64,000 bases of DNA from a virus (IMGVR_UViG_3300009430_000001:32598-96597); one strand, 5' to 3'; positions 19,508-51,842 are shown, counted from the first letter of the stretch. Numbers and translations are program-made. Notes: generated by a model from the sequence alone, not told the origin.

Positions 19508-20119
19508 ATGGCAGTCAAGAGATACGCCGGTAGTAGCAATGTCGTGGATGACATCTTGGCGGCTGTTGGCGACAATGCATATACTAGGGCGTGGAGTGAC
19601 GCCATGGGAAATGCGATACGGCCTGTGGATAGAATGATTGCTTCTGACTCTGATCGGTTTGCGTCTTCCTTGAAAGAAATGGAAGGGCTGATTAACCGTG
19701 GAGTCGAGGAAGCGAAAGGGCAGGGGTTATCGCAGGCTGCAGGGGAGCAGCTGCTTGCAAGGTTGAATCGGCTTGATCCTAGCGGTGCTCTCGCTGAAAA
19801 CATGGGAGCTGGGCTGAGTCAGGCAGTGGAAAGAGCAAAGCGGAATGGGTCTTCGGTGGGGAGTGAATTTGCGGGTTTGGTATTTGATGCTCGAGAAGAT
19901 CTGAAACCGGAGTTGATCGATGCGTATCTGAAGCAGCATCCGCCCTCTGATGTTCACATGATGACCAAGGCGGGCGGATTGCTTCATGCAGCAGCAGGCA
20001 TGGCGCCTTCTGCGTATGGCATCCCGGCTGCGGGAGCAGGTCTTGCTGCGTGGGGCCTGCATGATTATCTGCAGGCCCAGCAGCAGGCGGAGAAGGAGTC
20101 TCAGCTTCCAATGAGCTGA
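19508..20119 (+). CDS. late-type protein with C-terminal glycine-zipper-like segment
   Basis: TACCCTG at 19479; N-terminus MAVKRYAG; C-terminus GIPAAGAGLAAWGL. Confidence 0.7.
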   Translation: MAVKRYAGSSNVVDDILAAVGDNAYTRAWSDAMGNAIRPVDRMIASDSDRFASSLKEMEGLINRGVEEAKGQGLSQAAGEQLLARLNRLDPSGALAENMGAGLSQAVERAKRNGSSVGSEFAGLVFDAREDLKPELIDAYLKQHPPSDVHMMTKAGGLLHAAAGMAPSAYGIPAAGAGLAAWGLHDYLQAQQQAEKESQLPMS

Positions 20120-20123
20120 GGGC

Positions 20124-20441
20124 TTAGCAGTGATTGAGCTCTTCTGCGAGGAGCTGGTTGTCCAGTAAGGCTGCCTGGATCTCGTCGGGAGACATGTTGT
20201 CAGCTCCTCTACTGCGGTTGAGATCAGCGGCTTCGGGAATGATGTTACTCCAGTCGTCGGTGAGCTCGGGGCAGTTGTGTTGGCTGATGACGTGAGAAAG
20301 ATCTCGCTGCTCCCAGAATTCTTTGATTTCATGGGGGTCATCGAGTTCTTCAGGCGTAACAGCCAGCATGTCGGAGAAGTCTCCTCCGTAGGGCTCGGCT
20401 CGACTGTCGAGGTATGAGGTGAGATTGAATGGTAGGTTCAT
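20124..20441 (-). CDS. small protein with possible HNH/His-Me finger
   Basis: DLSHVISQHNCPELTDDWSNIIPE...LNRSRG. Confidence 0.45.
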   Translation of the reverse strand: MNLPFNLTSYLDSRAEPYGGDFSDMLAVTPEELDDPHEIKEFWEQRDLSHVISQHNCPELTDDWSNIIPEAADLNRSRGADNMSPDEIQAALLDNQLLAEELNHC

Positions 20442-20446
20442 CGTGG

Positions 20447-21334
20447 TCAAGAGGAGAAGAAGGCTGTTATGTTGTAAGTCGTGGTGTTGGTGATTATTCT
20501 TGCCAAGGTGACGGCATTAGAGTTGGTGAATTTTGTTGATTGTTTTTGATGTGGTTTTAGCAACAGGGTGTTGACATCTAGGGCGTCTTCGAGCAAGAGC
20601 TGGGGAAAGAAGCCGTGGAGTGGGTTGTTGATGTATTTTCTGTGCCATTGAATGGACTTGCGGGGAGCAGCTAAAGATGATATAGCTAAAGAATTGTCTT
20701 TGAATTCGTTTAGGATGTTTTGGTAGTCTGCGACAAGATGTCTGTTGGTGATTTCCTTTGAAGAAATAAATGCTATTTCTTCGTCTTCCAGTTGGGTGAT
20801 AAGTCGCTTTCTGCCTTCGATCCTCTGGGTTAGAGGTGAGCTGATGATGCCAAGTGAGGCAAATGCCAAAATGCCCGTTGCAGCATCGCCCAAGAAGGCT
20901 GGAAAGTCGTATTGCTTTGCTCTTTTAAGTCGGCTTTCTTTGATTCGTAGTTCGTTGTAGTAGATTTCGTTGAAGCGGGTGATTTTGGTTAAAATGGAAT
21001 GAGCGTCTTTGGCAATGCGCTGATTCTTGAGGATTTTACGTTCAAGATTTGCATGTAGTGATCCCGGCTGTATGATGTCATATAGCCGGGTTTGTCCTGA
21101 TGGTTTTTGATAGACCTGGGCAAATAGGTGATCACCTGCCCTGTATTGACAGAACAGGTCAGCAGCCTCTGATCGATGTTGTGACCGTCTGTCGAAGCAG
21201 GTGATTTCAGTTGGTGGTCCGTTTTCAGGGATGAGGGTCAGGCGCCTGCCAAGTCGGAATGGGATGACTTCAGCGACGGCGCCACTGATGAGTCTGGTAG
21301 TAGCGAAAATGTTTGGATTTTGAAAAGTAGTCAT
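20447..21334 (-). CDS. AT-rich hypothetical protein (moron-like)
   Basis: 295 aa; markedly lower GC; coiled-coil plus one hydrophobic segment. Confidence 0.65.
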   Translation of the reverse strand: MTTFQNPNIFATTRLISGAVAEVIPFRLGRRLTLIPENGPPTEITCFDRRSQHRSEAADLFCQYRAGDHLFAQVYQKPSGQTRLYDIIQPGSLHANLERKILKNQRIAKDAHSILTKITRFNEIYYNELRIKESRLKRAKQYDFPAFLGDAATGILAFASLGIISSPLTQRIEGRKRLITQLEDEEIAFISSKEITNRHLVADYQNILNEFKDNSLAISSLAAPRKSIQWHRKYINNPLHGFFPQLLLEDALDVNTLLLKPHQKQSTKFTNSNAVTLARIITNTTTYNITAFFSS

Positions 21335-21436
21335 GTTGGCGATGGGGTGAAAGATTGAGCGAGCGTCAGCGAGCTGGCGCTAATGAAAAAAACCACCCCG
21401 TAGTGGGGTGGCTTTTGAGTCATGAAGGCTCTGGAC

Positions 21437-21847
21437 TCACTTGGCGCGACGCAGCGCGTTCCCTTCCGGGTAGCGTTTGTCAGCCAGATGGTCCGAGAAG
21501 GCGTAAACGCCAATGCCAGACCGCTGAACGGTCTTGTTCTCCTCGTCTCGGGTGACGACGCCGAGACTTAGTCCGCAGCCGTTTTCAACGGGAGACTCGA
21601 ACGAGATGAACAGAGGGCCTGCCTCGTGAAAGACGCCGTCGGCGTTCTCGAGGGTGATGCGGGCGTCCTTACGGGCAGCCGCAGCGGACTCCTTGCGGCA
21701 CTCGGGAGAACCAGCAACGGGAGCACTGGCGGACTCCTTCTTGGAGTCCTGGGGCGCCGAGCCATTGCCATTACTGGCGGGGCCTTCGACCTTCCTTTCG
21801 GTGGTCTCGGCACTGGTCTCGACGGTTTGGGTGGCGGCTTCAGCCAT
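21437..21847 (-). CDS. hypothetical protein
   Basis: 136 aa ATG ORF between two hairpin repeats. Confidence 0.65.
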   Translation of the reverse strand: MAEAATQTVETSAETTERKVEGPASNGNGSAPQDSKKESASAPVAGSPECRKESAAAARKDARITLENADGVFHEAGPLFISFESPVENGCGLSLGVVTRDEENKTVQRSGIGVYAFSDHLADKRYPEGNALRRAK

Positions 21848-21937
21848 GATGGATGAACTTGGGATTGTGTGGTGCCCATCTCCACTGAGGGCATAAAAAC
21901 AAGGCCCCCGTGGAGGGGCCTTTGGATGAGGAGGGGA

Positions 21938-22096
21938 TCAGCGCATGACGCGCTGAATGACTGGAGACGGCACTGGCCGGTCTAGTTGACCGAATGTGCC
22001 GTATGCGGAGCGGAGCTCGCGCCATTGCACGATGGTCATGCAGATGACCATACCTGCAATGGTGACGCAGGCATGAGGGGTGTAATCGCGATTCAT
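21938..22096 (-). CDS. 52 aa membrane microprotein (not in ORF track)
   Basis: MNRDYTPHACVTIAGMVICMTIVQWRE...; bounded by hairpins 22125 and 21901. Confidence 0.5.
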   Translation of the reverse strand: MNRDYTPHACVTIAGMVICMTIVQWRELRSAYGTFGQLDRPVPSPVIQRVMR

Positions 22097-22153
22097 GGTG
22101 AATCACGCGAAGGGCATAAAAGGAAGGCCCCCGATTACTCGAGGGCCTTGAGG

Positions 22154-22530: not shown

Positions 22531-22582
22531 GGCTCTATTGAAGGACACTGATGAAAGGCCCCCGTGGAGGGGCCTTGTGGGG

Positions 22583-22819: not shown

Positions 22820-22881
22820 GATGCTGCGCTCGAGGGACAGTAAACAAAGCCCCCCGTGGAGGGGGCCTTGTGGCGATGGAG

Positions 22882-24243: not shown

Positions 24244-24372
24244 ATGGCAAAGTCACCAACGATCGCCGGCAAGATCGTCATCGTCTCGAAGCCGAAGAAG
24301 ACCACGCAGGGCCAGGGCCAGCACAGCCGGCCGCGGAACGGGCGGAAGAAAATGCGGGGGCAGGGGCGGTGA
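24244..24372 (+). CDS. 42 aa highly basic phage peptide (not in ORF track)
   Basis: MAKSPTIAGKIVIVSKPKKTTQGQGQHSRPRNGRKKMRGQGR; PKKT.QG...RGQG pattern known from aquatic phages; GTGA-coupled to the next gene. Confidence 0.7.
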   Translation: MAKSPTIAGKIVIVSKPKKTTQGQGQHSRPRNGRKKMRGQGR

Positions 24373-25091
24373 AGCCGCGCTATCAAGCCATTCATTTGCC
24401 ACCTGGGCGCCCAAAAGAGCGCAATGAGGCCTGGCGGGTAATGGAGACCCTCGGCTCGATGGAAGCGTGGGGAAAAGACGATCCAAGAACTGATCGCATC
24501 TTCACGCTTCTTGGTCATGGCGGTGAGCTCAATGAAGATCGCCTCCTTGACCCAACTCATGCGCCGCGGCTTGAGGTGCAGGATCTCGAGCTTCTGGCTG
24601 ATGCGCATGATGAGATTGTTCGCGCAGACCCTGCATTACGCGAGGAGATGGAGTTCATCCCTCGGATTCTTGCCAGAGCCACAGAGCCTCGCGATCTACC
24701 CTCTTCATCAAGTGACGAGGCGCAGCCGGGCAACATGAGGCAGTGGAAGCGAAGCGGCAAGCAGCCTTCATGGGCGGCCGGTGTCGCGGATGACGTCCTC
24801 GGCGGGGAGGCGCCGCCAGCGCCAGACAAGGAGGTCACGCCGCCCGATCCTCAGGTGCGGCAGCCGGCCGAGCGGAGCAACCCCACCGGGCAGGAGACGC
24901 CGCAGACGAACCTGAAGACGAAGAAGGATGCCGAGGAGGCCTGGGACTGGGGTCGATTCGCCGGGGATGCCCTGCCCTGGCTTGCGGCCGCAGGTGGCGG
25001 CGCCGTGGGTGGCGCAGCGCTCATGCACTTGCTCTCGAGGCCGGCTGTCGCGGCTCCGGCCATTGCTCAACCTGGAGCGGAGAACTACTGA
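24369..25091 (+). CDS. late protein with C-terminal glycine-rich TM-like segment
   Basis: 240 aa; RFAGDALP followed by AAAGGGAVGGAAL. Confidence 0.7.
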   Translation: MKPRYQAIHLPPGRPKERNEAWRVMETLGSMEAWGKDDPRTDRIFTLLGHGGELNEDRLLDPTHAPRLEVQDLELLADAHDEIVRADPALREEMEFIPRILARATEPRDLPSSSSDEAQPGNMRQWKRSGKQPSWAAGVADDVLGGEAPPAPDKEVTPPDPQVRQPAERSNPTGQETPQTNLKTKKDAEEAWDWGRFAGDALPWLAAAGGGAVGGAALMHLLSRPAVAAPAIAQPGAENY

Positions 25092-25321
25092 TGCCGATCA
25101 CACGATTTGCTGGAGAGAAGCTTCGGAGCAAGGTCGAGAACGGCCCGTCTGACATCACGAATCCAATGGAGCCACTGCGGGAGAGGATTCTCAATGCGGC
25201 TGCTCTCTTGACTTCCTTGGGTGAGAGGAATCCCGTTGGAGCCGTTTGGGCTGGCATTAACGCTGGAAAAGCGGGTGCTGTCACGCTCGATGACGCTCGC
25301 AGAAACGGCTGGATGCAGTGA
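25091..25321 (+). CDS. small late protein
   Basis: TGATG coupling; N-terminal RFAGEKLR. Confidence 0.65.
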   Translation: MPITRFAGEKLRSKVENGPSDITNPMEPLRERILNAAALLTSLGERNPVGAVWAGINAGKAGAVTLDDARRNGWMQ

Positions 25322-25350: not shown

Positions 25351-25605
25351 ATGGCACTTCGAAAAGCGGGCGACAAGCTGCGAGAGCACGCTGAAAAGAG
25401 CAAAAAGCCGGTTGTGCCCAAAGATGCACCGATGACGCATGGCGGCAAAGGCGGGACGAAGGGCACGTTCACGGCTGCTGCATCACGTCACGACATGGGC
25501 GTGCAGGAGTTTGCGAGCCAAGTCAAAGCACATCCGGAAAATTACAGCCCGGCGATGCGCAAAAAGGCGAATTTCGCCGCAAATGCCGCAAAATGGAAGC
25601 ATTGA
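25351..25605 (+). CDS. small basic putative virion protein
   Basis: KGTFTAAA..H..GVQEFASQV.A..ENYS....KKANFA.NA.KWKH module; N-terminal RKAGDKLR. Confidence 0.75.
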   Translation: MALRKAGDKLREHAEKSKKPVVPKDAPMTHGGKGGTKGTFTAAASRHDMGVQEFASQVKAHPENYSPAMRKKANFAANAAKWKH

Positions 25606-29795: not shown

Positions 29796-30151
29796 TGGCA
29801 TTTCGCAACCAGGCTCTGCCAGCCCAGATCCGCTCCGGGAACGACAGCCGCCTCAGGCAGCTGGGCCAGCCGCCTGCCGGGTTCAGCCAGGGCGCCGCGG
29901 CCCGGGCGAAGGTGGCCGCCGGCAAGTTCAGCGAGGGGGATCCCGGGGCCGATGCCGCTGCGCCGTGGTTCGTCGGCATGCAGCCGTTCAGCCAGATCCG
30001 GGCGGCGAACCAGAACGTGTTCAATGACTGGGACGATCGATTCACCAACGCCACCGACATCGGCTTCCGGTTCCGGCCGCCACCGCCTGAACCCGAGCCG
30101 GCACCGGTCGAGGGCGGCTCGAGCTCTGGTGGCGAGGAGGTGAAGGGCTGA
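29795..30151 (+). CDS. hypothetical late protein
   Basis: TGATG-coupled at both ends. Confidence 0.65.
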   Translation: MAFRNQALPAQIRSGNDSRLRQLGQPPAGFSQGAAARAKVAAGKFSEGDPGADAAAPWFVGMQPFSQIRAANQNVFNDWDDRFTNATDIGFRFRPPPPEPEPAPVEGGSSSGGEEVKG

Positions 30152-30732
30152 TGGCGGTCACACGATTGGCTGGCAAGGCATTGCGCGGGGTCTGGCATCG
30201 CAAGCCCTTGAAGGATCTGGGCACCTGGGAGCACACGCGGCAGGCCGTGATGCCGCGGGGAGCCCTGGAGTGGGGGGTGGAACTGGCGCCGGACCTGATC
30301 GGGGCAGGCATGATGATGATGAACATGGAGGGCGCCACGCCACTGGAGCGGGCGATGGCCGGGGCCTTTGATCTCGGCGCCGGGCTGGGCCTGTCGTTCG
30401 GCGGTCGCCTGGCCGGCGGAGCCATCGGAGACGCTGGGGCCAGGCTGGGCGGCGCGACTCGCGCACGGGATTTGCGCCGCGCGGCGAGCACCGGCGCCGG
30501 CATCGGTGGCTACGTCGGTCCGATGTCGATGATAGTGATGCCCTACGAGAAGCTCAACCCGGCCTATGGCGGTTACGTGGAGCGCATGCAGGCGCAGGGC
30601 GCGCAGCAGCAGGAATTGTCACCGGAGGAATACGGCATGCTTCAGCAGCTGTATCTCAATGCTGCGCAGAGTCCGAAGGTGACGGGCCTGCAGGAGGCGT
30701 TGGGAATGTCGGGGATGCCGATGTATGGCTGA
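30151..30732 (+). CDS. Gly-rich putative virion protein
   Basis: N-terminal RLAGKALR; glycine-zipper-like segments. Confidence 0.7.
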   Translation: MAVTRLAGKALRGVWHRKPLKDLGTWEHTRQAVMPRGALEWGVELAPDLIGAGMMMMNMEGATPLERAMAGAFDLGAGLGLSFGGRLAGGAIGDAGARLGGATRARDLRRAASTGAGIGGYVGPMSMIVMPYEKLNPAYGGYVERMQAQGAQQQELSPEEYGMLQQLYLNAAQSPKVTGLQEALGMSGMPMYG

Positions 30733-31876
30733 AGTCGTTGTCAATGAACAGCAGGGCACCGCGCAGCACAAGCGCAATGTGTGGGAGCAGCTTGTCGAGG
30801 GCTTCTATCGTGGTGCAGAGGATCGGTCTTATGAGATAGGTGCCACGCCGGTTGAACACATCATTCACGATGCGGCGTGGAATCCGAAAAACTGGCAGCA
30901 GGCCTATCGCGGCACCGGCGATCGTCCACCGACATTTGCTGAGCGCATTGGTGCGACGATGGGTTTGGCGGTCAAGGATTTGATGCGAGATGGCTCTCGC
31001 ATTCCCTACTGGGCGCTCAATCACCCATTGGCGATCTATGGTGTTGCCAGTGATGCAGCGGCAGAAGCGGCGGGGCTGCGGCCTGATTATGCGGCGCTTG
31101 AAAAGCATGCTAAGAAAAACAAGACATCGATTGACAGGGATGTCCTGCAGGCGCAATGGGAAGAGCACATGGGCTTCGACAAGAAGCGCATTCCGCTTGT
31201 CATTGCCGGCCGCGCTGCTCCATTCATTGGTGCTGCGGCATTGGTGCAAGCGTCCGGCAACCATGATTTGCTGAATCCACTCGAAGGTGGGCGCTCTCCG
31301 GGCTTTGAGGCTGTCATTCCACAAGAGGGGGATCCGACAAAGTCGGCGAATGTGCCGGGTGAAGTAGTTGCTCGTTACCTCTTTGGCCGTACGGGGCGCC
31401 TGTTGCCGTGGGAGCAGTTCACCGAAGAGCGGCCTGATGTGTCGCCACAGGACTACGGCTCTTATCGCGCTCATCAATACGACAAGGGCCTTTTCAACAT
31501 TGGCTTGTTCAAGGGCACCTCGAGGAACATCGAAGGCGAGCCTGAGTTCACGATGATGGGGTTTCGCACGCCGCTCTCGGCGGTGGGGGCTGGCGCGGGC
31601 GCCCTCACCGGCAGCGTCCTGGGCGCCAGCGCTGCTGTGGCCGCCGCAGCGAAGACGGCACGGGAGCTCTCTGGCGATGGTCCTTTTCCCGCTGGCCGGC
31701 ACATGGGGCCGCGGCGCCTGGCGGGCTCTATCGCTGGTGCCATTGCTGGGGCCATCGCCGGCAAGTACGGCACGCAGGCGGTCAACGACCTTGCGCTGCA
31801 GCCGTTGATCAATCCTGAGGCGGTGGAAGCTGAGCGCGTGTGGCGCGAGCAGCAGCGTGCTGCTGGGGCCCTCTGA
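30725..31876 (+). CDS. putative virion protein with glycine zippers
   Basis: 383 aa; GAGAGALTG, GAIAGAIAG. Confidence 0.75.
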   Translation: MAEVVVNEQQGTAQHKRNVWEQLVEGFYRGAEDRSYEIGATPVEHIIHDAAWNPKNWQQAYRGTGDRPPTFAERIGATMGLAVKDLMRDGSRIPYWALNHPLAIYGVASDAAAEAAGLRPDYAALEKHAKKNKTSIDRDVLQAQWEEHMGFDKKRIPLVIAGRAAPFIGAAALVQASGNHDLLNPLEGGRSPGFEAVIPQEGDPTKSANVPGEVVARYLFGRTGRLLPWEQFTEERPDVSPQDYGSYRAHQYDKGLFNIGLFKGTSRNIEGEPEFTMMGFRTPLSAVGAGAGALTGSVLGASAAVAAAAKTARELSGDGPFPAGRHMGPRRLAGSIAGAIAGAIAGKYGTQAVNDLALQPLINPEAVEAERVWREQQRAAGAL

Positions 31877-35928: not shown

Positions 35929-37491
35929 ATGGACGCTTCAGTAGGTCTCCTGGCACGCGCGAAAGCCCTGGCCAACGCGGACACGCGCATTGACATCGAG
36001 GTTCCGCCGGACATTCGTCTTGCGCGCACGGATTTCTCGGTGTTCTGCAAGGTGATGGGCAAGCCGAATGCTCGCCATCACGAGGAATGGGTGCACGAGT
36101 TCGTCACGGAGGAGACGAGCTCACGGTTGCTGCGCATTGCTGGAGCGGACACGGCGATCCTCGCGCCGCGAGGTTCGGCGAAGAGCACAGTGCTGGCGCT
36201 GTTCACGGCGTGGGCGATTGGTATTCACAGTGAAGCGCGCAAGCTGTTGCGGATTCTCTACATTAGCTATGCACTGGACATTGCGCGATCGAAGAGTTTT
36301 CAGATCAAGCAGATCATCAACTCGAAGCCCTTTCGCGAGGTCTTTCCCACGGTGCGACTTGGCAAGGACCGCACGTCGGATGAGCTCTGGGCGATCGACA
36401 TGGACTTCGCGGATGTTCAGGTTGATGCTGATGATCCGTACACGCTCTGCGCTTCTGGCCTTGGTGGTGCCATCGTGTCGCGCCGCGCGGATCTGATCGT
36501 GATTGATGACGCGATCAAGAGCGTGGACTCGATCTCGAATCCTGACATTCGCGCCAAGTTGATCACGAACTGGCAGCAGGTGGTGCGGCCGTGCTTGCTG
36601 GACGGTGGTCGCTGCATTGCGTTGGGCACGCGATTCAGCGCTGTTGACATCTACGGCACAACATTTGTGCAGAAGAATGGTTGGCGCGTCATCGTCGAGA
36701 AGGCGATTCTCACTGATGGTGATGGACTCGAGTGGTCGTACTGGCCTGAGATGTGGTCGTTGCCGTATCTGCAGAAGCTTCGTCGTGAGTCGCCGACAGA
36801 CTTCAGCTTTCAGTTTCAGAACCTGCCCGTTGCGCAGAGTGAGCTCAATTTCCCTGAAACGTGGTTCGTGCAGGAGCCGCTGAAGCGCGATAGCGGTGGT
36901 GCTGTTCAGCCTTATGACATGCTTTGTGTTGGCGTGGATCTCAGCAGTGGACTGAAGGAGCGCAATGATTACACGGTCATGCTGCTGGGCGGCATTCGCG
37001 ATGGCAATGTCGAGATGATCAGCTACCAGCGCATGCGGGCCATGGGCAATCTCGAGAAGCTCGACGCTTTGCTTGACATGCTGGAGGAGCAGGAGCTGGT
37101 GCGCGTTGAGGAGATCAACGGTGAGGAGCGCTGGCATCCGACTGATTGCCCGGTGACGGTGCTGTTTGAAGAGATCAGCTACCAGCAAAGCATTCGCGGT
37201 GACGCCAAGGCGATTCTTCACGACAAGCGCGGGCTCTACAACATCGTGCTGCGCGGAGTCAAGGGCTACCGTGGTGACAAGCTCAGTCGTTTTCGCGGCA
37301 CCTTGGGCCTGTTCCAGACGGGCAAGGTGACGTGGAATCCGCTCTACAACTGGGATGCTTTCAAAGACGAGATGGTGAACTTCGGTTACACCGATCACGA
37401 TGACTGCGTGGATGCCACGGTGCTCACGATCCGCGGCCTGGTCGGCCAGGGGGCTCTTCAGGCGCAGTGGGGCGACTGGGATCTCGAGTAG
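35929..37491 (+). CDS. terL: terminase large subunit
   Basis: Walker A APRGSAKST, Walker B LIVIDD, coupling GTR, nuclease VGVD...DYTV...HDDCVDA. Confidence 0.95.
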   Translation: MDASVGLLARAKALANADTRIDIEVPPDIRLARTDFSVFCKVMGKPNARHHEEWVHEFVTEETSSRLLRIAGADTAILAPRGSAKSTVLALFTAWAIGIHSEARKLLRILYISYALDIARSKSFQIKQIINSKPFREVFPTVRLGKDRTSDELWAIDMDFADVQVDADDPYTLCASGLGGAIVSRRADLIVIDDAIKSVDSISNPDIRAKLITNWQQVVRPCLLDGGRCIALGTRFSAVDIYGTTFVQKNGWRVIVEKAILTDGDGLEWSYWPEMWSLPYLQKLRRESPTDFSFQFQNLPVAQSELNFPETWFVQEPLKRDSGGAVQPYDMLCVGVDLSSGLKERNDYTVMLLGGIRDGNVEMISYQRMRAMGNLEKLDALLDMLEEQELVRVEEINGEERWHPTDCPVTVLFEEISYQQSIRGDAKAILHDKRGLYNIVLRGVKGYRGDKLSRFRGTLGLFQTGKVTWNPLYNWDAFKDEMVNFGYTDHDDCVDATVLTIRGLVGQGALQAQWGDWDLE

Positions 37492-37520: not shown

Positions 37521-39773
37521 ATGCAAGGTCCGGATCAGACGCGCTTTATGCAGATGCTGGAGGCAGCGCGCACGCGGCGCTCCTCTGATGATGCGGCATC
37601 GATGATCGTGCCGGCGCATCTGGCGCAGATGCGTCTGTTCATGACGCGGCAGGGCATCGAGTTTCACGCCAAGCAGGACAGCTACGGCCAACGGCGCGAT
37701 TTCATTGAGCGGGTCTCGGCATTCAACAAGCTACCTGGGCGCCTTGAGGGGATCATTGACTCGTTCCTGATTGATGGACGCGGGCTTTTCTATTTCAGGC
37801 CCAGCAAGGATTTGTACAGGGTTCACTATTTCCGCTACGATCAATATCGCGCCTACTACGATGATGATGGTGACCTGACGGAGCTGCAGATTATCTACAG
37901 CTTCAAGGTCAGGCCGCCGAAGGGCTTTGGTGCTTCCCTCGGTGCCGCGCAGGTTGGTCAGGATGTGCGTTTTGTCGGCGGACCCTCGAATGCGCAGCTG
38001 CGCTGGATCAAGCTCGAGGTGTACAAGGATCGCGTTGAGCAGACGATCTCTGAAGAGCGGCCGGAGTTCGATGGACTCGCCTCTGCGAAGAAGACGGTGA
38101 TGACCAACGCGCTCGGGTTCATCCCAGCGGTGGAGGTCTTCAACAACCGCAGCTTGGAGGAAGGCGAGGGCTATGGCGAGTTTGACTGGCTGGCATCGCA
38201 CATCCTTGAGCACGATCGCCTGGTGCGCTCGATCCGCAAGAACGTTCACTTCTTCGGCAATCCGACGCTGGTGAGCTCTCGCCCGCGTCATGACCTGATC
38301 GAGCCGGACGAAGATGGCGCACAGGCTCAACGGGCCACCGTGGCGAGCAACAGCGGCTTCAATGGCGTGCGAACGCGGAGCACGCGGGTCTCAGAACCCG
38401 GCTACGGAGGGGATGCACTGCGCGTGCCGCGCGTGATCGCCAACGTGGAAGCGGCGGATCGCGTCGGCTACATCAGCCCGGATGCGGTGAGCGGCGATCT
38501 GACGTCCTGGACGACGATGTGCCAGGAGATGATCCGCACGGCGCTCGGCGGGGTGGACGATCTGTCGATCAACAGTGGCGCCACGGCTTACGAGGTGAAG
38601 ACGCTGTACGGGCGTGTTTCCGCAACTGCAAAGCGCAAGTGCCGGGATCTGTTCGAGTACGGCTTGTGTCAGCTGTTTCAGCTGATGATCTTCCACGAGG
38701 AGACGTTGTTCCGCGAGTCGCTTGCCGTGGCGCTTGGCATCATCAAGCCGGAGCCGCCGCTGGAGGAAACCATTCCGCCTGAGCAGTTTCCGCAGATCAT
38801 GCAGATGTATCAGCAGTTGATGCAGCAGTGGAATGAAGCGGTTAACAGCGCGATCATGCAGATCAAGAAAACAGGCGAGGTGCCACCAGGCGTCATTGGC
38901 TTGATTCCCGACGGTGAGACGACGGTGTTGTATCGTTGGATGGGTGAAGTATTTCCGCAGTCTAACGAAGAAATTCTCCAAGCAAGCATAGTTGTCCGAA
39001 ATCTCCAAGAAATAGGCGTTGATTCATTGGAAGCACTCATGTGGCTTTTCCCCGAGAAGACGCCAGAGGAGCGGGCCGCGATGCTGGGTGGATACCCTTT
39101 CCGTGTGGCCGAGGCGACACAGCGTGCGATTGGGATCACGATCGACACCATCCGGGCGTTTTTCTCGACCCCCCATCCGCAGGAGCCGGACCTGCCTCTC
39201 GCCGCCGATCCTGCGCTGGATCTGACGCCCTACCTGTACCGAACACTTGCCCACCTTCGTACCGAGCTGACCTATGGAGGCCGCTATTCAGAGCGGGATG
39301 CAACCGTCGGCATCCCCGACACCCTCACAGATGCCGACCGCTTACGCGCCGCCCGCGGTCTCGCAACAGGCGCCGACCGGGCCGATGCCCAGCGGCGTGC
39401 CAGCTTCGCCGCAGCAGCTCGCTTCGTGGCAGGCTCCCGTCCAGGACAGCTGGGCTTCGATTCCGGCGCAATGGCAGCAGGCATTCCAGGGGACGCCGGC
39501 CGCCTTTCCTACTCCGAGTCCCCAGTTTTCGGCGCCGGCGGGACCCTCGCTTACGACCCAGCCGATTCCGCCCGCAACGGCGCTCAACTGGGCAGTGGCG
39601 CAGGCCCCGGCAGTGGCTTCGGCGAGCCCGACCTGGCAGCCCCAACCAACGCCGGCCTACTACCAGCAGCCCCAGGCCCAGCCCCAGTACCCGCAGGCCC
39701 AGCCGCAGGTGCAAATGGTGCCGGTGGCGGTGCCCCAAGCCGCAACGGCACCAAGCGGCGCCGGCGCGGTTGA
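37521..39773 (+). CDS. portal protein with long C-terminal extension
   Basis: Directly after terL; portal-like size and helical character; TACCCTG at 37495. Confidence 0.8.
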   Translation: MQGPDQTRFMQMLEAARTRRSSDDAASMIVPAHLAQMRLFMTRQGIEFHAKQDSYGQRRDFIERVSAFNKLPGRLEGIIDSFLIDGRGLFYFRPSKDLYRVHYFRYDQYRAYYDDDGDLTELQIIYSFKVRPPKGFGASLGAAQVGQDVRFVGGPSNAQLRWIKLEVYKDRVEQTISEERPEFDGLASAKKTVMTNALGFIPAVEVFNNRSLEEGEGYGEFDWLASHILEHDRLVRSIRKNVHFFGNPTLVSSRPRHDLIEPDEDGAQAQRATVASNSGFNGVRTRSTRVSEPGYGGDALRVPRVIANVEAADRVGYISPDAVSGDLTSWTTMCQEMIRTALGGVDDLSINSGATAYEVKTLYGRVSATAKRKCRDLFEYGLCQLFQLMIFHEETLFRESLAVALGIIKPEPPLEETIPPEQFPQIMQMYQQLMQQWNEAVNSAIMQIKKTGEVPPGVIGLIPDGETTVLYRWMGEVFPQSNEEILQASIVVRNLQEIGVDSLEALMWLFPEKTPEERAAMLGGYPFRVAEATQRAIGITIDTIRAFFSTPHPQEPDLPLAADPALDLTPYLYRTLAHLRTELTYGGRYSERDATVGIPDTLTDADRLRAARGLATGADRADAQRRASFAAAARFVAGSRPGQLGFDSGAMAAGIPGDAGRLSYSESPVFGAGGTLAYDPADSARNGAQLGSGAGPGSGFGEPDLAAPTNAGLLPAAPGPAPVPAGPAAGANGAGGGAPSRNGTKRRRRG

Positions 39774-40398
39774 TCGCTACCTCAGCCAGATCAGCGACGA
39801 ATCGCTCGAGCTGCTCGAGCATTTCGGGCCCGAAGCGCCGGTTCGCCTGAACACCTACGCCTGCCAGGTCGAAGACGCTCTGCTGGAGGCCCTGCAGCAC
39901 CAGCAGTACCAGGCCGACGTCGTCAGGGAGTACCAGGGCTACGTCGAGAAGGTGGTGCCACTGCTCGAAGCCGCCAAGGCCGAGCGTGAAGCGCTGACCC
40001 ACATCCTCACCGATCCCAAGCGACTGGGCGAGTACGTCGAGGGCTTCTTCGGTCCCGAGGGCCCGTTCCCGACGCAGACCCCAGGCGAGGAGGCTCGCGA
40101 TCGCCTGCAGCAGGGCATCGCCGAGACGCAGGGCCGGCTCGTGCCCATGCAGGACTTCCGCGCTCAGGACTGGGCCGATCAGCAGGCCGCCGCTCAACAG
40201 CAGGCCGCGGCGCAGCAGGGATTCCAGCGGCCGCAGATGCCCATGCCGGCCCCGGGCGGGGGTGGCGGGATCTCGGCTCAGGACGTCTGGGGTGCCTTCA
40301 CCCAGGCGATGGACGCGCGACCCGAGGACGCCTGGAAGGTGTTGGCTCAGGCTCCGCCTGATGCGATCCGCCAGAAGATCCTTTTCATGGGTGAGTGA
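39274..40398 (+). CDS. putative capsid scaffolding protein
   Basis: P/Q/A-rich disordered N-terminus plus coiled coil; lies between portal and capsid genes. Confidence 0.7.
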   Translation: MEAAIQSGMQPSASPTPSQMPTAYAPPAVSQQAPTGPMPSGVPASPQQLASWQAPVQDSWASIPAQWQQAFQGTPAAFPTPSPQFSAPAGPSLTTQPIPPATALNWAVAQAPAVASASPTWQPQPTPAYYQQPQAQPQYPQAQPQVQMVPVAVPQAATAPSGAGAVDRYLSQISDESLELLEHFGPEAPVRLNTYACQVEDALLEALQHQQYQADVVREYQGYVEKVVPLLEAAKAEREALTHILTDPKRLGEYVEGFFGPEGPFPTQTPGEEARDRLQQGIAETQGRLVPMQDFRAQDWADQQAAAQQQAAAQQGFQRPQMPMPAPGGGGGISAQDVWGAFTQAMDARPEDAWKVLAQAPPDAIRQKILFMGE

Positions 40399-42161: not shown

Positions 42162-42443
42162 GTGGTCGAGCGCTTTGCCGCCAGTCCTGAGGTCTACAGC
42201 GCTGTGCGGCGTCACCTGCAAAGTGACGGTGTTCCGCGTGAGGCCGCCAACCATCTCACATCCGAGATGGTCACGCACGGTGAAGACGTCGATTCATCGA
42301 TCGATCGCTTCCAGGAGCTGCATGCGCGCCTGCGGTCACAGGGCTTCGATGACGAGGCGGCGCAGGCTCTGGCCGTTGAGTCGATGGAGGGCCGCCAGCC
42401 CGAGCCGCGCGCCACGCTTCGCTACCAGATGACGGAGGCCTGA
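42162..42443 (+). CDS. small helical late protein
   Basis: GTG 28 nt after TACCCTG (42134); coupled to the lysozyme gene. Confidence 0.65.
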   Translation: MVERFAASPEVYSAVRRHLQSDGVPREAANHLTSEMVTHGEDVDSSIDRFQELHARLRSQGFDDEAAQALAVESMEGRQPEPRATLRYQMTEA

Positions 42444-43246
42444 TGGCGGACTTACTCGCGCGTTACCGGCAGCTCCTGCAGAACCCGAACGTTCGCCGGA
42501 CGCTGGACACGATCAGCTACGCGGAGGGCACCTCGGGCCCCGAGGGCTACCGCACGATGTTCGGTGGCGGCAAGTTCGACACTTCCGGCGGCTGGCGGCA
42601 CCCGGATCGAGTGGTGCACGGCGGCGGTTACAGCAGCGCCGCAGCCGGCAAGTATCAGTTCATGCCCGACACCTGGACCGGTGTCTCGCAACGTCTGGGC
42701 CTGAAGGACTTCAGCCCCGAAAGCCAGGATCTCGGCGCGCTGGCCAAGATCGAGGAGCGCGGCGTCAACCTCGAGGAGATCGCCAAGGGCGGCCTGAAGG
42801 CGGGCCACATCCACAAGCTGGCGCCGGAGTGGGCGTCATTGCCGACCGCCCAGGGCAAGAGCTACTACGGCCAGCCAGTGAAGGGGCTCGGTGAGCTCCA
42901 GAAGGTCTACGGCGGCCAGATCGGCGCCGGTGGTGGAGGCGGCAGCACTGCGAGCTCCGGTGGCGGCACGAGCAGCGGCAGCAGCAGCGGCACGAGCAGC
43001 AGCAGTAGCGGCGCGAGCGGTGGTGACGGCATCATCCAGCCGGAGCCGATCACGCCGCCCAAGCCGATCACGCCGGCCGCCATCCAGACGCCTGGTGCGA
43101 CGCTGATCAAGCCCGCCGCTTCGTTCGGCGTCGGGCCCAATGCCTGGGAGGGCGCGGGCGGCCAGGACGCCACGCCGTCGGGCAATCGCCTTGCCGGCTC
43201 GCGCTCGATCGTGCGCCAGCTGATGCAGATGCTCATGGGCGCCTGA
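42443..43246 (+). CDS. lambda-R-type (GH104) lysozyme/lytic transglycosylase with Ser/Gly linker and tail
   Basis: ISYAEGT..GY..MFGG..SAAAGKYQF..TW..DFSPESQD..EWASLP..YGQP. Confidence 0.9.
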   Translation: MADLLARYRQLLQNPNVRRTLDTISYAEGTSGPEGYRTMFGGGKFDTSGGWRHPDRVVHGGGYSSAAAGKYQFMPDTWTGVSQRLGLKDFSPESQDLGALAKIEERGVNLEEIAKGGLKAGHIHKLAPEWASLPTAQGKSYYGQPVKGLGELQKVYGGQIGAGGGGGSTASSGGGTSSGSSSGTSSSSSGASGGDGIIQPEPITPPKPITPAAIQTPGATLIKPAASFGVGPNAWEGAGGQDATPSGNRLAGSRSIVRQLMQMLMGA

Positions 43247-44280: not shown

Positions 44281-45946
44281 GTGTGGATTGATTCCGATAA
44301 ATGGATTGTCGCCCGCATCGGTAACGGTGCGGTGAAAACCGGGTGAATTCGGGGAAACCCAAACGTTAAGTCGTGGGCAATCCCGAGCCAAGCCAGCAAA
44401 GCGTTGCTGGAAGGTGTAGAGACTACGCGGTGGAAGACGCTTCTTCCGTAATACGCGATCAGCGCCCGGCATCCCACTGGGATGAAGATATAGTCCGTGC
44501 TGCGCGAAAGCGTAGAATTTCACGTTTCCAAAGATCCTGGGTGCGGAACTCTATCGTCCGCATCCCAGTTACATCTCCGAGCTCGCAATCGAGCCAGTTG
44601 TTGTACACGATTATTCCAGAATGCCGGGTCAAACGGTACAACTGGACCGGTACAATTACTGGGGGAATCCTGGAACGAAAGAGTCCAGAGAGCGTACTCC
44701 GGATCAAACAATCGGCACGGCTTCCGGCCGCAACATCACCAAGCAAAAGGTCTTGGTGACGTTGAAGGAATACTCGGGGCCTGCAGATCCGAACGATCCG
44801 TCACAGCCGAGCACGTTCAAAGTTTCAAGGCAAAACCTCATGACCGCGCAGCGATTGCTGCTCGACACGGGTAACCTGGGCGTGTTTCATCAGTCGATCG
44901 GCAGCCTCACGCTGCTCGATGACTACCGACGCTGGCGCGATCGCGTCTTTCTCAACGAATTGTACAAGTGCTACGCACGCGGCAAGGCGGATGAGGAGCG
45001 CGGTGGCTACTACTTCCCCGGCAAGCTGAGCGAAGCTGAGCTCGCCGCTCCTGGATACAACGTGTCCACCGCCGGAACGGCTGATTCGGCGAAGTTCTCC
45101 GTCAAGGAGGACCTGCTGACGGTCGTCACCGACATGCGTACCCGGAACGTGCCCACGTTCCAGGATGGGTACTACCGGTGCATCTGCGATCCGAACGCAA
45201 TGAAGCACCTCCGCCAGGACAGCGACTTTCGCGAGATCGCTCGCTACCCCGGCAACGGCATGATCAATCCGATGATGCCGATGATGCAGCCCAATGCCAT
45301 CAACTACCTCGGCAATGGGCCTGCTTACGGTCAAGCCGGCTTTGTCGCCGGTGCGCCGACCATGCCTGAACAACCACGGGCCCTCGCGGCGTGAGTCGCG
45401 TTGCAAACGGGGTGAATTGCTGGAACGCCTCCACCAATTGGCGAATCAGCAGCCAAGCCGGATCACAGTCCGGAAGGTTCAACGACTAGGTCCCGAGTGG
45501 CAACACGGTAATGGACCCACGAGTGCCCCGCTACTTGCTATGCTTTTATTCGCGAGTAGGTGAGATAGTCTGACCACGCCGGATGGGAAACGGCGTGAAC
45601 TGGAGGATAAAGAGCCTCCAGGGTAACACAGGTGAGTGGCTTCCTCTTCGAGGGCGTTCGCTGGTTCGAGTCCACCAACATCGCCTCGCACACCTACAAC
45701 GTGGCGATCCAGGGTGCCAAGGGTTTCACTGGCAATACCGCCAAACAGAACCCTGCCGCACTGATGATGTTTTTTGGACCACAAAGTATCGGGATCGGCA
45801 TCGGTGGCAATAACGCTCAAGTGGCCCTGAATTCAAATGACGATTTCTCAAGATTCGTGATTTTGATATGGCTACTCTACGCAGGTTGGGAGGTTTTGAA
45901 TATGGATTTTGTGACAATCGCTCACAGTTTCCTATACTCCATCTGA
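44281..45946 (+). CDS. major capsid protein, join(44281..44298,44525..45367,45635..45946), 390 aa spliced
   Basis: GGAGG RBS plus GTG; spliced read MWIDSD|FPKILGAELYRPHP...APTMP|SGFLFEGVRWFESTN is in frame; HK97-like P-domain elements (YRCICDP, GFLFEGVRW, MFFGPQSIG). Confidence 0.88.
44299..44524 (+). ncRNA. group I intron 1 (226 nt, no ORF)
   Basis: Exon ends in U with P1 CGAU/GUCG; P3 CCGGGTG/CGCCCGG; P7 GACTA(44421)/TAGTC(44491); AAGATATAGTCC; GNRA-capped P2 and P9; terminal G. Confidence 0.92.
45368..45634 (+). ncRNA. group I intron 2 (267 nt, no ORF)
   Basis: P1 GCCU/GGGC; P3 CGGGGTG/TGCCCCG; AATTGCTGGAA..AATCAGCAG; P7 GACTA(45484)/TAGTC(45566); terminal G; P10 CCAC/GTGG. Confidence 0.92.
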
Positions 45947-48977: not shown

Positions 48978-48978
48978 G

Positions 48979-49536
48979 ATGAAACCAGAGCGCAAGGGAC
49001 CCTACCGCGAGAAGCAGTACCCCGGCCGCGGAACAGGCGCCTGGGTTGAAAACCCGCGCGAGATTCAACGGGCCAACACCGCTTACTTCGGCGGGCACAA
49101 CAATCCGCGCAACACCGACAGTCATCTGATCGAGATGACGCGCGACAATGGGCAGATCTACAGCAACAGCTACGGCGATGGTCGCGGACCGATGGCGCCG
49201 GTGCCGTTTGTCGAGACGCGGCCGATCCCGGAGAACATGCGCCTGGTGCAGCAGCCGCCGGATGCAATGAACGACGGGCTCGAGCGGCCGATGGGCTTCC
49301 CGGGCACGCTGCCGGCCAATGCTGGCCCGTCGCCGATCAGTGGTCCGCCCAATGAGGTGGCGATGGCGCCAGGCCTGCCGGGCGAGCAGACCGAGCGGGG
49401 GCAGATGCTGCGCACCGGCCGGCCGGGACAGATGCCGCTGGCGCCGGTGAGCCCGGTCGATCTCGAGGAGCTGGCGAAGTTCGGGCTGCCGCCGAATGCG
49501 ATGCCCGGCGCCGTACCCTCGCGGAAGAAGGGTTGA
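48979..49536 (+). CDS. Pro/Gly/Met-rich late protein
   Basis: 185 aa, adjacent in operon. Confidence 0.65.
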   Translation: MKPERKGPYREKQYPGRGTGAWVENPREIQRANTAYFGGHNNPRNTDSHLIEMTRDNGQIYSNSYGDGRGPMAPVPFVETRPIPENMRLVQQPPDAMNDGLERPMGFPGTLPANAGPSPISGPPNEVAMAPGLPGEQTERGQMLRTGRPGQMPLAPVSPVDLEELAKFGLPPNAMPGAVPSRKKG

Positions 49537-49539
49537 GCC

Positions 49540-50304
49540 ATGGCGTACCAGGACACCAAGCGGCGCATTGATCCGCAGAATTTCCTTCAAAGCAGCATTG
49601 CGCATTACGGCGAGTACAGTCGTTTGCACAACGCTGGCATCAAGGTCGGCAGACAGGCCGAAGAGGCGCTGCGGCTTCGCTACAATGATCCCAGCAAGAT
49701 GACGGCTCAGCAGATGGAGCTGTCAGATCCGCTGAACATTCGTGCCGCGGTTGACACACACAAACAGGGCGGCAACATCAATACCTACAACAGCACCAAT
49801 GACCTGGAGAAATCGTACGATCGCATTCTCAGCGGCGGCAAGCAGGAATCAGGCGGCAGTGACACGCTGGGATTGAGCCAAGAGGATTTCGATCACTATT
49901 CATCGTTGGCTCGCGACATGGGCCTCAACAAAGGCGGTGGAGCCCTGAGCGCGAATGATTTGCGCCAGGTGCGCGAACGCGAAGCCGCGAAAGCGCCACC
50001 GGCCAGTCCTGCGCCTGCGGAGGCTCCAGCTGCGCCGCCGCCCACGGAGTATGAGCGTGATCAGATCGCCAGACAGGAGACGGGCAATCCGTGGGCCAAC
50101 AGGTTCAGCGGCCATTCATCGCAAACTGCTGAGCCCGACTGGTATGACGTGATCACGGACAAGACCAATCAAGCAGCGATGGGCATGTATGGGCAGATTG
50201 GCGATGATCTGCGCTCTGATTATACGATGATGGCGGATCGCTCCAAGACGACTGAGAAAGACAGCCGCAGCTACCTCAAGCAGTACATCAACCAGCTGAT
50301 GTGA
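49540..50304 (+). CDS. hypothetical late protein
   Basis: 254 aa in operon. Confidence 0.7.
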   Translation: MAYQDTKRRIDPQNFLQSSIAHYGEYSRLHNAGIKVGRQAEEALRLRYNDPSKMTAQQMELSDPLNIRAAVDTHKQGGNINTYNSTNDLEKSYDRILSGGKQESGGSDTLGLSQEDFDHYSSLARDMGLNKGGGALSANDLRQVREREAAKAPPASPAPAEAPAAPPPTEYERDQIARQETGNPWANRFSGHSSQTAEPDWYDVITDKTNQAAMGMYGQIGDDLRSDYTMMADRSKTTEKDSRSYLKQYINQLM

Positions 50305-50307
50305 TTC

Positions 50308-50844
50308 ATGGCCACAACCTCTTCAAACAAGCAGCCCCTGCTGATCGATCGGCCGCTTCACGTCGTCGCTCGGCTGGATCAGACCAGCCAGCCCGCAGGA
50401 TCCGTTGATCCCGGCACCGGGACGAATGGCGTGCTACTGGTCGACTGCACGGGCACAAGTGATGGCGCGTTTCTCGACACGATCTTCCTGATTCAGCGTG
50501 TCAGCGATGATGAGTCGATCGTCAATCTGTTCTTCTCAGAGAGCAATGGCATGCTTGGCGTGGTGACAACCGGCGGGCAGGCGAATGCCTGGTTCATCAA
50601 CACCTGCAAGTTCCCGGCCACCACGCCGGTGGGGCAGCATGTCGAGTTCGAGCTGCCACACGTGCTCTCGCCGATCCCCCATGCCGGCGCCAACCTGGCA
50701 CTGCAGGGGCGCAGCGGCGTCTCTGAGCCGCCACGCTATCGAGGCCTTTATGTGCCAAGAGGCAAGGCGTTGTGGGCGGCGGTGTTTCACCCGGCGCCCG
50801 TGCCTCATGCACCCAACATCGCTTGCCAGGGAGGCTGGTACTGA
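50308..50844 (+). CDS. putative structural beta-rich protein
   Basis: TSSNKQPLLIDRP...RGLYVPRGKALWAA...QGGWY. Confidence 0.7.
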   Translation: MATTSSNKQPLLIDRPLHVVARLDQTSQPAGSVDPGTGTNGVLLVDCTGTSDGAFLDTIFLIQRVSDDESIVNLFFSESNGMLGVVTTGGQANAWFINTCKFPATTPVGQHVEFELPHVLSPIPHAGANLALQGRSGVSEPPRYRGLYVPRGKALWAAVFHPAPVPHAPNIACQGGWY

Positions 50845-51842
50845 TGGCCACGCTTGCTCAACAGCGCGCGCAGACATTTCAGCAGCGCAATCCCTACCAG
50901 AACGTCAACGATCCGTATCACGTTCCTGGTTACATTCCGCCGAATACGCAAGGCGGTTACAACGGTCCGGTCTATGGTTCGGCGGCTGGCACGTACCTGC
51001 CGTACAGCAACAAGGCCACCTACGACCCGTACCAGGAGCTCGGCGCTGCCGCGGAGAATCCCGACTACTACGCGGCCACCGGTGGCGCCATGCAGCCTGG
51101 CGGCTCGAGGGTCAGCGGTGGCTCCGATGGGTCGAGCTTCTCGAATGGCAGCCAGCCCTCGGGCTCCAGTGGCAACCAGTCGAAGTCCGGTGAAGACGGC
51201 TCGAAATCTGGCGGCTCGCAGGTGCCCGCCGGTTACGAGCCGAACATCCTGGGTGCGCAGTGGAACCCGGCGCCAGGCGGCGGGTATGTGCAGCGCAGCA
51301 ACGGGGCGGTGATCACCAGCGCTGGCGATGGCGGGACATTCGATGCGTACAACCCGGGGCGTTTCAAGGGCCAGGGAAATGTGGATCCACGTCAGGGCGC
51401 TTCTGCCGGAAGCGGCTATTCGGGCTTTGGCCAGGACAAGTACGTCGGCAGTGAACAGTTCTATTCGAGTGATGCGATCGCCTATCGCACCAGCAGCGGG
51501 ACGACTGCCGCGGATCGCACCTACAACATGGAGGGCACGGCGCCGCGCAAGCAGATCGACAGATCCCTGAGCTACGAGGGCACAAGCCCCGATGCTTACA
51601 ACGGCGGTGGCGGCGATCGTGCGGCCGGGCGTCAGGAGTGGGGCTTCATGGATGAGAACGACGCCAGCACGCATCAGCGTGGCTCGGCGCCGGGCTACCG
51701 GCAGGACTACGGCCGCTACGCGGCGCAGCCGGCACCTGGGAGTGGCGGCTCGGGCGCTCCGGGTCGCCCGGGTGGGCCCACCCATCGCCGGCCAACGGGT
51801 CAGCGCCTGGCTGGCGAGGCGCTCCGCAGCCTCGGGGTCTGA
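50844..51842 (+). CDS. Gly/Ser/Tyr-rich low-complexity late protein
   Basis: ATG 50844, TGATG-coupled; C-terminal RLAGEALR. Confidence 0.7.
   Translation: MATLAQQRAQTFQQRNPYQNVNDPYHVPGYIPPNTQGGYNGPVYGSAAGTYLPYSNKATYDPYQELGAAAENPDYYAATGGAMQPGGSRVSGGSDGSSFSNGSQPSGSSGNQSKSGEDGSKSGGSQVPAGYEPNILGAQWNPAPGGGYVQRSNGAVITSAGDGGTFDAYNPGRFKGQGNVDPRQGASAGSGYSGFGQDKYVGSEQFYSSDAIAYRTSSGTTAADRTYNMEGTAPRKQIDRSLSYEGTSPDAYNGGGGDRAAGRQEWGFMDENDASTHQRGSAPGYRQDYGRYAAQPAPGSGGSGAPGRPGGPTHRRPTGQRLAGEALRSLGV

Follow-up and report, generated by a model that had tools for sequence, protein, structure and literature searches.

A short R-x-A-G peptide recurs at the termini of unrelated late proteins in S-EIV1-like phages and may serve as a docking tag

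Why do otherwise unrelated late proteins of a single phage carry nearly the same short peptide at one of their ends? The question is raised by the final 64 kb (IMGVR_UViG_3300009430_000001:32598-96597; hereafter the window, 64,000 nucleotides) of a 96,597-bp IMG/VR viral genome with direct terminal repeats, in which proteins encoded between positions 19508 and 51842 bear variants of R-x-A-G close to their N- or C-termini. The window has a G+C content of ~61% and is laid out as a minus-strand block of small genes followed by plus-strand late genes, among them those of the terminase large subunit (35929-37491, +; 520 amino acids) and a portal-like virion protein (37521-39773, +). The original prediction, made from the sequence alone, described the longer peptide R-x-A-G-[DEK]-[AK]-L-[RP] as a possible capsid-loading or cleavage tag. 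The present analysis shows that the R-x-A-G core recurs on unrelated families, is restricted to the late strand and is unstructured in models of two of the proteins that carry it. It is read here, tentatively and at a probability of roughly 0.35, as a terminal peptide by which different proteins would dock to a single partner, most plausibly during virion assembly. Shared terminal address peptides are a known concept; the R-x-A-G motif and the S-EIV1-like lineage to which this genome is related have not previously been described in this respect.

All seven peptides listed in the original prediction translate exactly as it stated, and for each tag-bearing open reading frame (ORF) the claimed frame is the best-scoring of six. 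At the N-terminus, the tag opens w19508, a 203-residue all-helical late protein in its best coding frame (19508..20119, +; MAVK-RYAGS, tag at 19520-19534), the 76-residue ORF w25091 (25091..25321, +; MPIT-RFAGEKLR, tag at 25103-25126), the 84-residue protein w25351 (25351..25605, +; MAL-RKAGDKLR, tag at 25360-25383) and the 193-residue Gly/Ala/Met-rich protein w30151 (30151..30732, +; MAVT-RLAGKALR, tag at 30163-30186). The 93-residue helical-bundle protein w42162 (42162..42443, +) carries a degenerate copy, VVE-RFAAS (42171-42185). In w25351 the tag is followed by a linker rich in Lys, Pro and Gly and then by a conserved C-terminal domain. ORFs 25091 and 30151 start within TGATG stop/start overlaps, typical of translational coupling; w25091, which overlaps its upstream gene in this way, has the best of six frames with a low score (6.8) and is not included in our gene model, the models for the window and its relatives being our own crude calls. 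Outside the window, a gene at genome position 9119 starts MN-RKAG, and a transmembrane-like helix follows.

Other copies lie toward the C-terminus. RFAGDALP (24954-24977) is internal to w24369, a late protein of 216-240 residues (24369..25091, +), 45 residues from its C-terminus and directly before a Gly/Ala-rich hydrophobic segment. The 267-residue lysozyme w42443 (42443..43246, +) consists of a catalytic domain (residues 9-162, matched by PHROG endolysin/lysozyme families, with phrog_90 endolysin at E=5e-31), a disordered linker of ~80 residues rich in Gly, Ser, Thr and Pro, the peptide RLAGS (43187-43201) and an amphipathic helix. The Gly/Ser/Gln/Pro/Tyr-rich protein w50844 (332 residues; 50844..51842, +), which is probably disordered, ends ...RLAGEALRSLGV, with a perfect copy of the eight-residue motif at 51804-51827. 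The w50844 gene is an insertion unique to this genome, as its two neighbours lie side by side in every relative examined.

The tagged proteins are related to each other in little besides the tag. Hidden paralogy was considered and rejected, as all-against-all BLAST of the proteins minus their first 15 residues shows no likeness beyond it. Searches of PHROGs and Pfam with the tagged proteins returned only the lysozyme domain of w42443 and a marginal match of w25351 (phrog_20603, E=0.0096). No homologs of w24369 were found among the lineage relatives, none of w25091 in relatives or family searches, and none was detectable for w50844; a word-indexed search with w30151 returned only w30151 itself.

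Within this genome, the full motif matches five times in a six-frame translation of the whole 96.6 kb, always on the plus (late) strand; four of the matches lie inside called genes and one in the uncalled ORF 25091-25321. Proteome shuffles give 0.01 expected matches, a figure to be read with the post-hoc origin of the pattern in mind, as it was written after the matches were known. The shorter core R.AG starts within residues 2-8 in 5 of 125 proteins (0.57 expected, p=3.3e-4), which comprise 5 of the 74 late-strand and none of the 51 early-strand proteins; the fifth is the product of the gene at genome position 9119, outside the window. Its enrichment at C-termini alone is not significant (4 vs 1.8 expected, p=0.11). 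Anywhere in the proteome, R.AG occurs 28 times (18.9 expected, p=0.03) and R.AGS four times (1.1 expected, p=0.02 uncorrected). The seed RFAGEKLR has four proteome matches against 0.33 expected (p=3.7e-4 uncorrected). Motif-free approaches were less telling. In a pairwise comparison of N-terminal 8-mers, the top score of 28 (25351 vs 25091) lay inside the shuffle null, with a mean maximum of 29; an unbiased enumeration of 8,661 N-terminal patterns was noisy, with only 'AGK' near the top and not significant after correction; and a maximum-hits seed statistic was swamped by Gly-rich low complexity and was uninformative. Of the eight-residue motif originally proposed, the four-residue core R-x-A-G holds, while the long form is confined to this genome and its statistics are soft.

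The core was then available as a pre-specified hypothesis, and was tested as such in the other genomes of the lineage only, with families clustered after removal of the first 15 residues. A single relative has been isolated, Synechococcus phage S-EIVl (KJ410740), whose portal protein is 49% identical to that of the window; portal alignment recovered >500 related IMG/VR contigs, which is why the S-EIV1-like lineage is described here as widespread and dark. Four near-complete relatives were retrieved, G001, G002, G003 and G005. In the independent genomes, [RK].AG falls within the first 10 residues in 15 families (7.9 expected, p=0.016) and [RK].AG[RKDE] in 10 families (2.1 expected, p=6e-5), and among families of two or more members the count is seven (2.0 expected, p=0.004). 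Thirteen scrambled or altered control motifs were at expectation. In the 83 families whose second residue is Arg or Lys, residues 4-5 are most often 'AG'. The original prediction proposed a comparison of late and early proteomes across relatives; the late bias seen here (5/74 vs 0/51) recurs in the genomes of low GC, whose ORF calls are clean: 10 of 227 ORFs on the portal strand are tagged, against 1 of 216 on the opposite strand, the lone exception being an unannotated antisense ORF. Across the lineage the tag takes the shape M-(0-4 residues)-[RK]-x-A-G, and its bearers include small proteins that begin MKLAGKY, proteins of 200-400 residues that begin MRFAGSG, MRKAGRV or MRFAGRV, and a 296-residue protein that begins MKLAGTQ. 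Five proteins in this genome and at least 10 families lineage-wide thus have in common a short N-terminal peptide on otherwise unrelated late proteins. The central claim of the original prediction, a short linear address tag on unrelated late proteins, is supported by this N-terminal enrichment and late-strand restriction, as well as by the ortholog conservation and flexible placement described below.

The conservation of the tag is clearest in the w42162 family, for which an exhaustive HMMER search with a family alignment gave 50 representatives, 34 of them with an intact N-terminus. In 25 of these 34 the protein begins [MV]-(0-3 residues)-R-x-A-G; eight are degenerate (R-x-A-A-S or R-F-C-G, including RFAAS of the window) and one has lost the tag. 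Between the tag and the conserved core lies a hydrophilic linker of variable length (0-7 residues). In a 26-sequence alignment, no column of the whole protein is invariant except the tag Arg, G61 and A71, and the tag Ala is nearly invariant. Even very divergent members, whose match to the profile is confined to its C-terminal half, begin MR[FL]AG.

Two further features of this family were observed. A second motif, S-x-R-[FY]-A-[GR]-[ILVM]-Y-G (for example ESTRFAGIYGD), is found toward the C-terminus of members such as P0007, P0009, P0034, P0047 and P0052; since it accompanies the N-terminal tag, many members have R-x-A-G-like peptides at both ends. This counterpart is degenerate in the high-GC clade of the window (TLRYQMTEA in w42162). 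One clade (L012/G002 55601, L013 5203, L015 3330, L017 5591, L018 11821 and L024 13349) carries a conserved Cys-Ser-Cys extension before the tag (MGCSCE-RFAG, MSDSCSC-RMAG), and some of its representatives have a Cys-x-Cys insert after it (MRKAGEKPCGCQH); these Cys motifs may form a metal or redox site beside the tag.

In the w19508 family, R-[MKY]-A-[GA]-[EDSQ] precedes a conserved LGDN-YTR-W core in 19 of 31 members, and in four others the called start is the Met inside R-M-A-G. The database gene call for w19508 itself (P0058, 161 amino acids) starts at Met43 and omits the tag; because about 20 orthologs of about 200 residues align from residue 4, the longer, tag-bearing form appears the likelier product. 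Syntenic orthologs of w30151 begin V-RLAGRLAER (S-EIVl 48012) or MMLAGRL (L048 and L052). The lysozyme-tail copy, also put forward in the original prediction, is conserved in the close high-GC clade as RLAGS here, RMAGS in L006 and L007, RKAGW in L009 and RRFAQS in G001, and in each member it stands between a long low-complexity linker and, on its C-terminal side, an amphipathic helix.

The weaker hits of the original prediction fared unevenly. RFAAS of w42162 is a real, if degenerate, tag, as its family demonstrates; RLAGS in gene 30725-31876 (31715..31729, +) and RKAGS in gene 17256-18434 (17514..17528, +) did not hold up. RLAGS of w30725 was rejected as a terminal tag, as it forms the beginning, conserved in 10 orthologs, of a glycine-zipper helix (R-x-[LAKM]-A-G-x-[LIA]-x-G-x-x-x-G) in a protein with a weak DUF1269 glycine-zipper match. 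RKAGS in w17256, a protein for which no homologs were found among the lineage relatives, is unsupported and probably reflects chance in a Gly/Ala-rich context.

It had also been claimed that the conservation is at the protein level because the codons differ, and they do differ at wobble positions. In 36 tagged genes of the lineage, all synonymous forms of the Arg/Lys, Ala and Gly codons are used, with the wobble position free, and the DNA upstream of tagged genes is unrelated and not conserved. Since the wobble positions vary and the upstream DNA is unrelated, conservation is at the level of the peptide and not of a DNA cassette. The latter possibility, a shared promoter, ribosome-binding site and first codons, was rejected on these two grounds and on the overlap of two of the genes with the preceding stop codon. 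The R-x-A-G peptide is under protein-level selection.

AlphaFold2 models of two tagged proteins, confident in their helical bodies, place the tag outside the folded body of the protein. The model of w42162 (predicted local distance difference test score, pLDDT, 84.6) comprises four helices and a short C-terminal helix, with residues 1-8 unstructured and of low confidence; that of w19508 (pLDDT 89.2) is all-helical, with residues 1-10 likewise unstructured and of low confidence. Searches with both models against PDB and BFVD using Foldseek, and with VIA-align wide, gave nothing above noise (top Z 5.6, to a helical protein). The C-terminal copies of the lysozyme and w50844 close long low-complexity disordered segments. 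With unstructured overhangs in the models and disordered linkers before the C-terminal copies, the predicted architecture is that of a tethered short linear motif. Most of the tagged proteins contain Gly/Ala-rich hydrophobic stretches. A glycine zipper follows the motif in w30725 and plausibly in w24369; no zipper or hydrophobic helix follows the N-terminal tags of w42162, w19508, w25091 and w25351. The tags do not conform to a lipobox (L-[AS]-[GA]-C after a hydrophobic region, or h-region), as there is no Cys after the Gly and no h-region after most tags, nor to a twin-arginine translocation signal (S/T-R-R-x-F-L-K followed by an h-region), as most have a single basic residue and no h-region.

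These properties suggest how a docking peptide might work. Flexible N-terminal overhangs or the ends of disordered C-terminal linkers would present it, in this genome in the extended form R-x-A-G-[DEK]-[AK]-L-[RP], and all copies would be read by a single putative partner, for which a conserved part of the virion under assembly, such as the procapsid shell, scaffold or portal, is the most plausible candidate. Membrane-active ejection-type proteins, the lysozyme and small proteins would thereby be recruited into or onto the particle, and cleavage of the peptide would not be needed. Docking in virion assembly is favoured because of the late-block context, the glycine-zipper segments and the precedents for capsid loading. 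The tagged genes cluster just upstream of the terminase and portal genes, together with a 1380-residue protein and a protein with weak tape-measure and tail-associated-lysin matches, and several of the tagged genes encode glycine-zipper hydrophobic segments typical of membrane-inserting (ejection) proteins. A more specific and rather improbable version is a four-residue, N- or C-terminal cargo-loading peptide that would dock unrelated proteins on the capsid, scaffold or portal without proteolysis, in the manner of encapsulins but in the DNA-filled head of a tailed phage; tag and receptor would co-evolve, and the extended form peculiar to this genome, R-x-A-G-[DEK]-[AK]-L-R, would be the outcome.

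A number of observations weigh against the docking reading. The presence of the tagged proteins in the virion and the identity of their partner are both putative. Only three residues of the common core are fixed, and an enrichment of 2- to 5-fold is not overwhelming. It is sobering that the best pairwise N-terminal likeness is not significant against the shuffle null, and the enrichment of the seed RFAGEKLR fails correction for about 875 possible seeds. In S-EIVl, the tagged gene 15480-15710 (MKLAGKY...) lies outside the structural module. The tag of w42162 is itself degenerate, as is that of the w30151 ortholog in the closest relative L004 (MRVPGLLGQ), and the w25351 homologs in G003 (MKRAKAKGLASAF) and S-EIVl (MADKKKKPNKW) have no tag. 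A short G003 ORF that begins MRMAGQ, upstream of the w25351 homolog, was considered and set aside as a separate ORF in another frame. The G002 ortholog of w30725 is tagged (it starts MRKAGRV), and the window copy has no terminal tag; together with the untagged w25351 homologs, this indicates that the tag is gained and lost among orthologs. Finally, the copies at 24954 and 31715, in the lysozyme tail and at genome position 9119 directly precede hydrophobic or amphipathic helices, and these copies fit a role at the membrane interface equally well.

The most serious competitor is that there is no common function at all. The N-termini would then be family-specific, the three-residue core (Arg, Ala, Gly) coincidental, the five 8-mers a lucky cluster, and Gly/Ala/Arg-rich composition combined with a post-hoc motif would account for the rest. 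This is a real possibility, if a doubtful one. The pairwise similarity that stays within the shuffle null, the seed test that fails multiple-testing correction, the enumeration in which 'AGK' alone came near the top without reaching corrected significance, and the modest overall and C-terminal excess of R.AG (28 vs 18.9, p=0.03; p=0.11) are all in its favour, but coincidence does not readily account for enrichment of a pre-specified motif in independent genomes where 13 control motifs showed none, for the strict late-strand bias, or for the five full matches where 0.01 were expected. Nor does it explain why this core ranks with the best-conserved features of two unrelated, deeply sampled families (w42162 and w19508), and why the tag of the w42162 family persists where the neighbouring sequence has diverged past alignment. 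Alternatively, the basic and small residues may cap the membrane interface, opening an amphipathic or glycine-zipper helix of late proteins whose target is the host envelope, such as those for the ejection channel, for lysis or for anchoring the lysozyme, with no specific partner needed. The conserved zipper start in w30725, RFAGDALP immediately before its hydrophobic Gly/Ala segment, the amphipathic helix after each lysozyme-tail copy, the MN-RKAG gene at 9119 with its transmembrane-like helix and the Gly/Ala-rich hydrophobic stretches of most tagged proteins are as expected for such a cap. It is nevertheless unlikely as a general account, since the tag of the w42162 family leads into a hydrophilic variable linker and a soluble helical bundle, charged hydrophilic sequence follows it in w25351 and w25091, and a generic cap would not require an invariant Arg and a nearly invariant Ala.

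A processing site, at which a phage or host protease would recognise R-x-A-G and trim the termini of head or internal proteins at maturation, is less likely still. The idea comes from the cleavage half of the original prediction, with its analogy to prohead-protease sites, and is prompted by the position of the motif near termini, by the variable-length N-terminal extensions before it in some proteins (MGCSCE-RFAG, MAGAGRRQ-RMAG) and by the tags with Glu at position 5 (RFAGE, RLAGE, RMAGE, RKAGE), which resemble the small-x-Glu sites of T4- and phiKZ-type head proteases. A search of the genome for prohead-type proteases (S78, S77 of the T4 gp21 type and S49; PF03420, PF04586 and PF01343) gave no match, though a divergent protease may have escaped it; position 5 may be any of D, E, K, Q, S, R and G, and in most relatives the motif begins at residue 2, so that a cut would remove only four or five residues. 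Cleavage is not favoured because of this lack of a detectable protease, the variable residue after the Gly and the tiny size of the trimmed piece, and this part of the original prediction is not supported. Recognition by a modifying enzyme (for instance a methyl-, acyl- or ADP-ribosyl-transferase with the Arg or the N-terminus as its target) in place of an assembly signal is very improbable; the invariant Arg of the w42162 family would suit it, but no candidate enzyme was seen beside the tagged genes, though nearly all proteins of the lineage have no family annotation. The likeness of some tags to the N-terminus of ribosomal protein L27 (MAHKKAGGS) is probably coincidental and was dropped.

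The surrounding genome offers few other points of reference. PHROGs and Pfam searches with the window proteins matched almost nothing beyond the terminase, the portal-like protein and the lysozyme; megablast against phage records did not find close relatives, and a search for related loci with single window proteins found none. In S-EIV1, about 85% of genes are without known relatives (PMC4916379). Sequence searches of PDB gave no match for the portal and two chance-level matches only (E 0.15 and 0.85) for the 1380-residue protein, for which ESM Atlas likewise gave no usable match.

Several observations on neighbouring genes were made in passing. The terminase large subunit has 520 residues in the window, 846 in S-EIVl (L003 14080-16620) and about 890 in G004. 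Because the match to the latter two divides into two pieces about 1 kb apart, an in-frame insertion is suggested in S-EIVl and G004, possibly an intein-like element. The terminase and portal genes are adjacent in the window, unlike in G001 (L084-L088), the closest complete relative, where four extra genes (encoding 93, 341, 313 and 462 residues) lie between them; one of these belongs to a family whose G005 member begins MKLAGTQ. A 374-residue ORF in another frame (39274-40398, +) overlaps the final ~500 nucleotides of the portal ORF 37521-39773 and aligns over 360 residues (28% identity) to S-EIVl 59395-60258, which likewise overlaps the 3' end of the S-EIVl portal; either the portal stops earlier than annotated or two frames are in use here. 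Window ORFs 44621-45394 and 45632-45946 both match a single contiguous stretch of S-EIVl (60976-61989, with 64% and 52% identity). The protein of ~520 residues encoded at 51842-53359, located 3' of the conserved 'KQPLLIDRPL' protein, has a conserved basic N-terminus of its own, M-[APV]-[KPR]-K-x-G-x-x-F-G, which is found lineage-wide (orthologs in L025, L028, L048, L051, S-EIVl 67456, G002 and G003) and differs from R-x-A-G.

To our knowledge, terminal address peptides of phage heads are experimentally known from very few systems (T4 and P1), all of them N-terminal, and that of T4 is coupled to proteolysis. If R-x-A-G is a docking peptide, it would provide a first handle on virion building in S-EIV1-like phages, with a much shorter motif usable at either end, and would allow predictions of which dark proteins accompany the particle. 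Cargo loading in phages would then be mechanistically linked to that in encapsulins, and, were sufficiency shown, the peptide would serve as a minimal tag with which to load proteins into a cyanobacterial phage. The finding would be an ordinary one if the motif proved to be a membrane cap or a coincidence.

One of the closest known systems is the capsid targeting sequence (CTS) of T4, an MKTYQEFIAE-like peptide that ends in an L/I-x-E head-protease site, where gp21 cuts. The CTS is the sole common feature of the T4 internal proteins (PMC3012670) and directs otherwise diverse late proteins to the assembling head (PMC3012670; Mullaney & Black 1996 via PMC9024508). As in T4 IPI-III and Alt, a short N-terminal peptide is the only feature common to diverse late proteins of one lineage. 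In contrast to the CTS, to which R-x-A-G has no sequence likeness, the core here is of four residues, occurs C-terminally as well, has no fixed cleavage residue and is accompanied by no detectable gp21-type protease, and the virion location of the tagged proteins is putative. In P1 DarB, the first 30 residues are enough to target the protein to the capsid (PMC9024508), which provides a second case of an N-terminal stretch outside the folded body that directs a protein into the capsid. There, ~30 residues on one protein act within the ordered Dar loading pathway, whereas the motif here has 4-8 residues and is found on many proteins. In Staphylococcus phage 80alpha, the capsid and scaffold proteins carry a common N-terminal cleavage motif of the Prp/L27 type, so that, as proposed here, one short motif on different head proteins has one common reader; the 80alpha motif is a protease site taken over from a ribosomal protein of the host, whereas the R-x-A-G tag is without sign of cleavage and no counterpart of it in a host was identified. 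DUF1269-like glycine-zipper helices resemble the tag in another way, as R-x-x-A-G-x-x-x-G opens one in w30725 and other copies precede Gly/Ala-rich hydrophobic segments, but the tags of w42162, w19508, w25091 and w25351 do not stand before a zipper or hydrophobic helix. The remaining comparison is with encapsulins, whose family 1 consensus, SDGSLGIGSLKRS / TVGSL, differs from R-x-A-G, and for whose Linocin_M18 shell (PF04454) the genome gave no match; in the phage, a capsid filled with DNA would take the place of that shell. The targeting peptides of encapsulins are very short and rich in small residues, lie mostly at the C-terminus but in some cases at the N-terminus (TVGSL on ferredoxins), and are attached through flexible linkers to unrelated cargo, and they bind a luminal pocket of an HK97-fold shell (PMC8346489). 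In their placement at either end and their tether architecture, they match the R-x-A-G tags.

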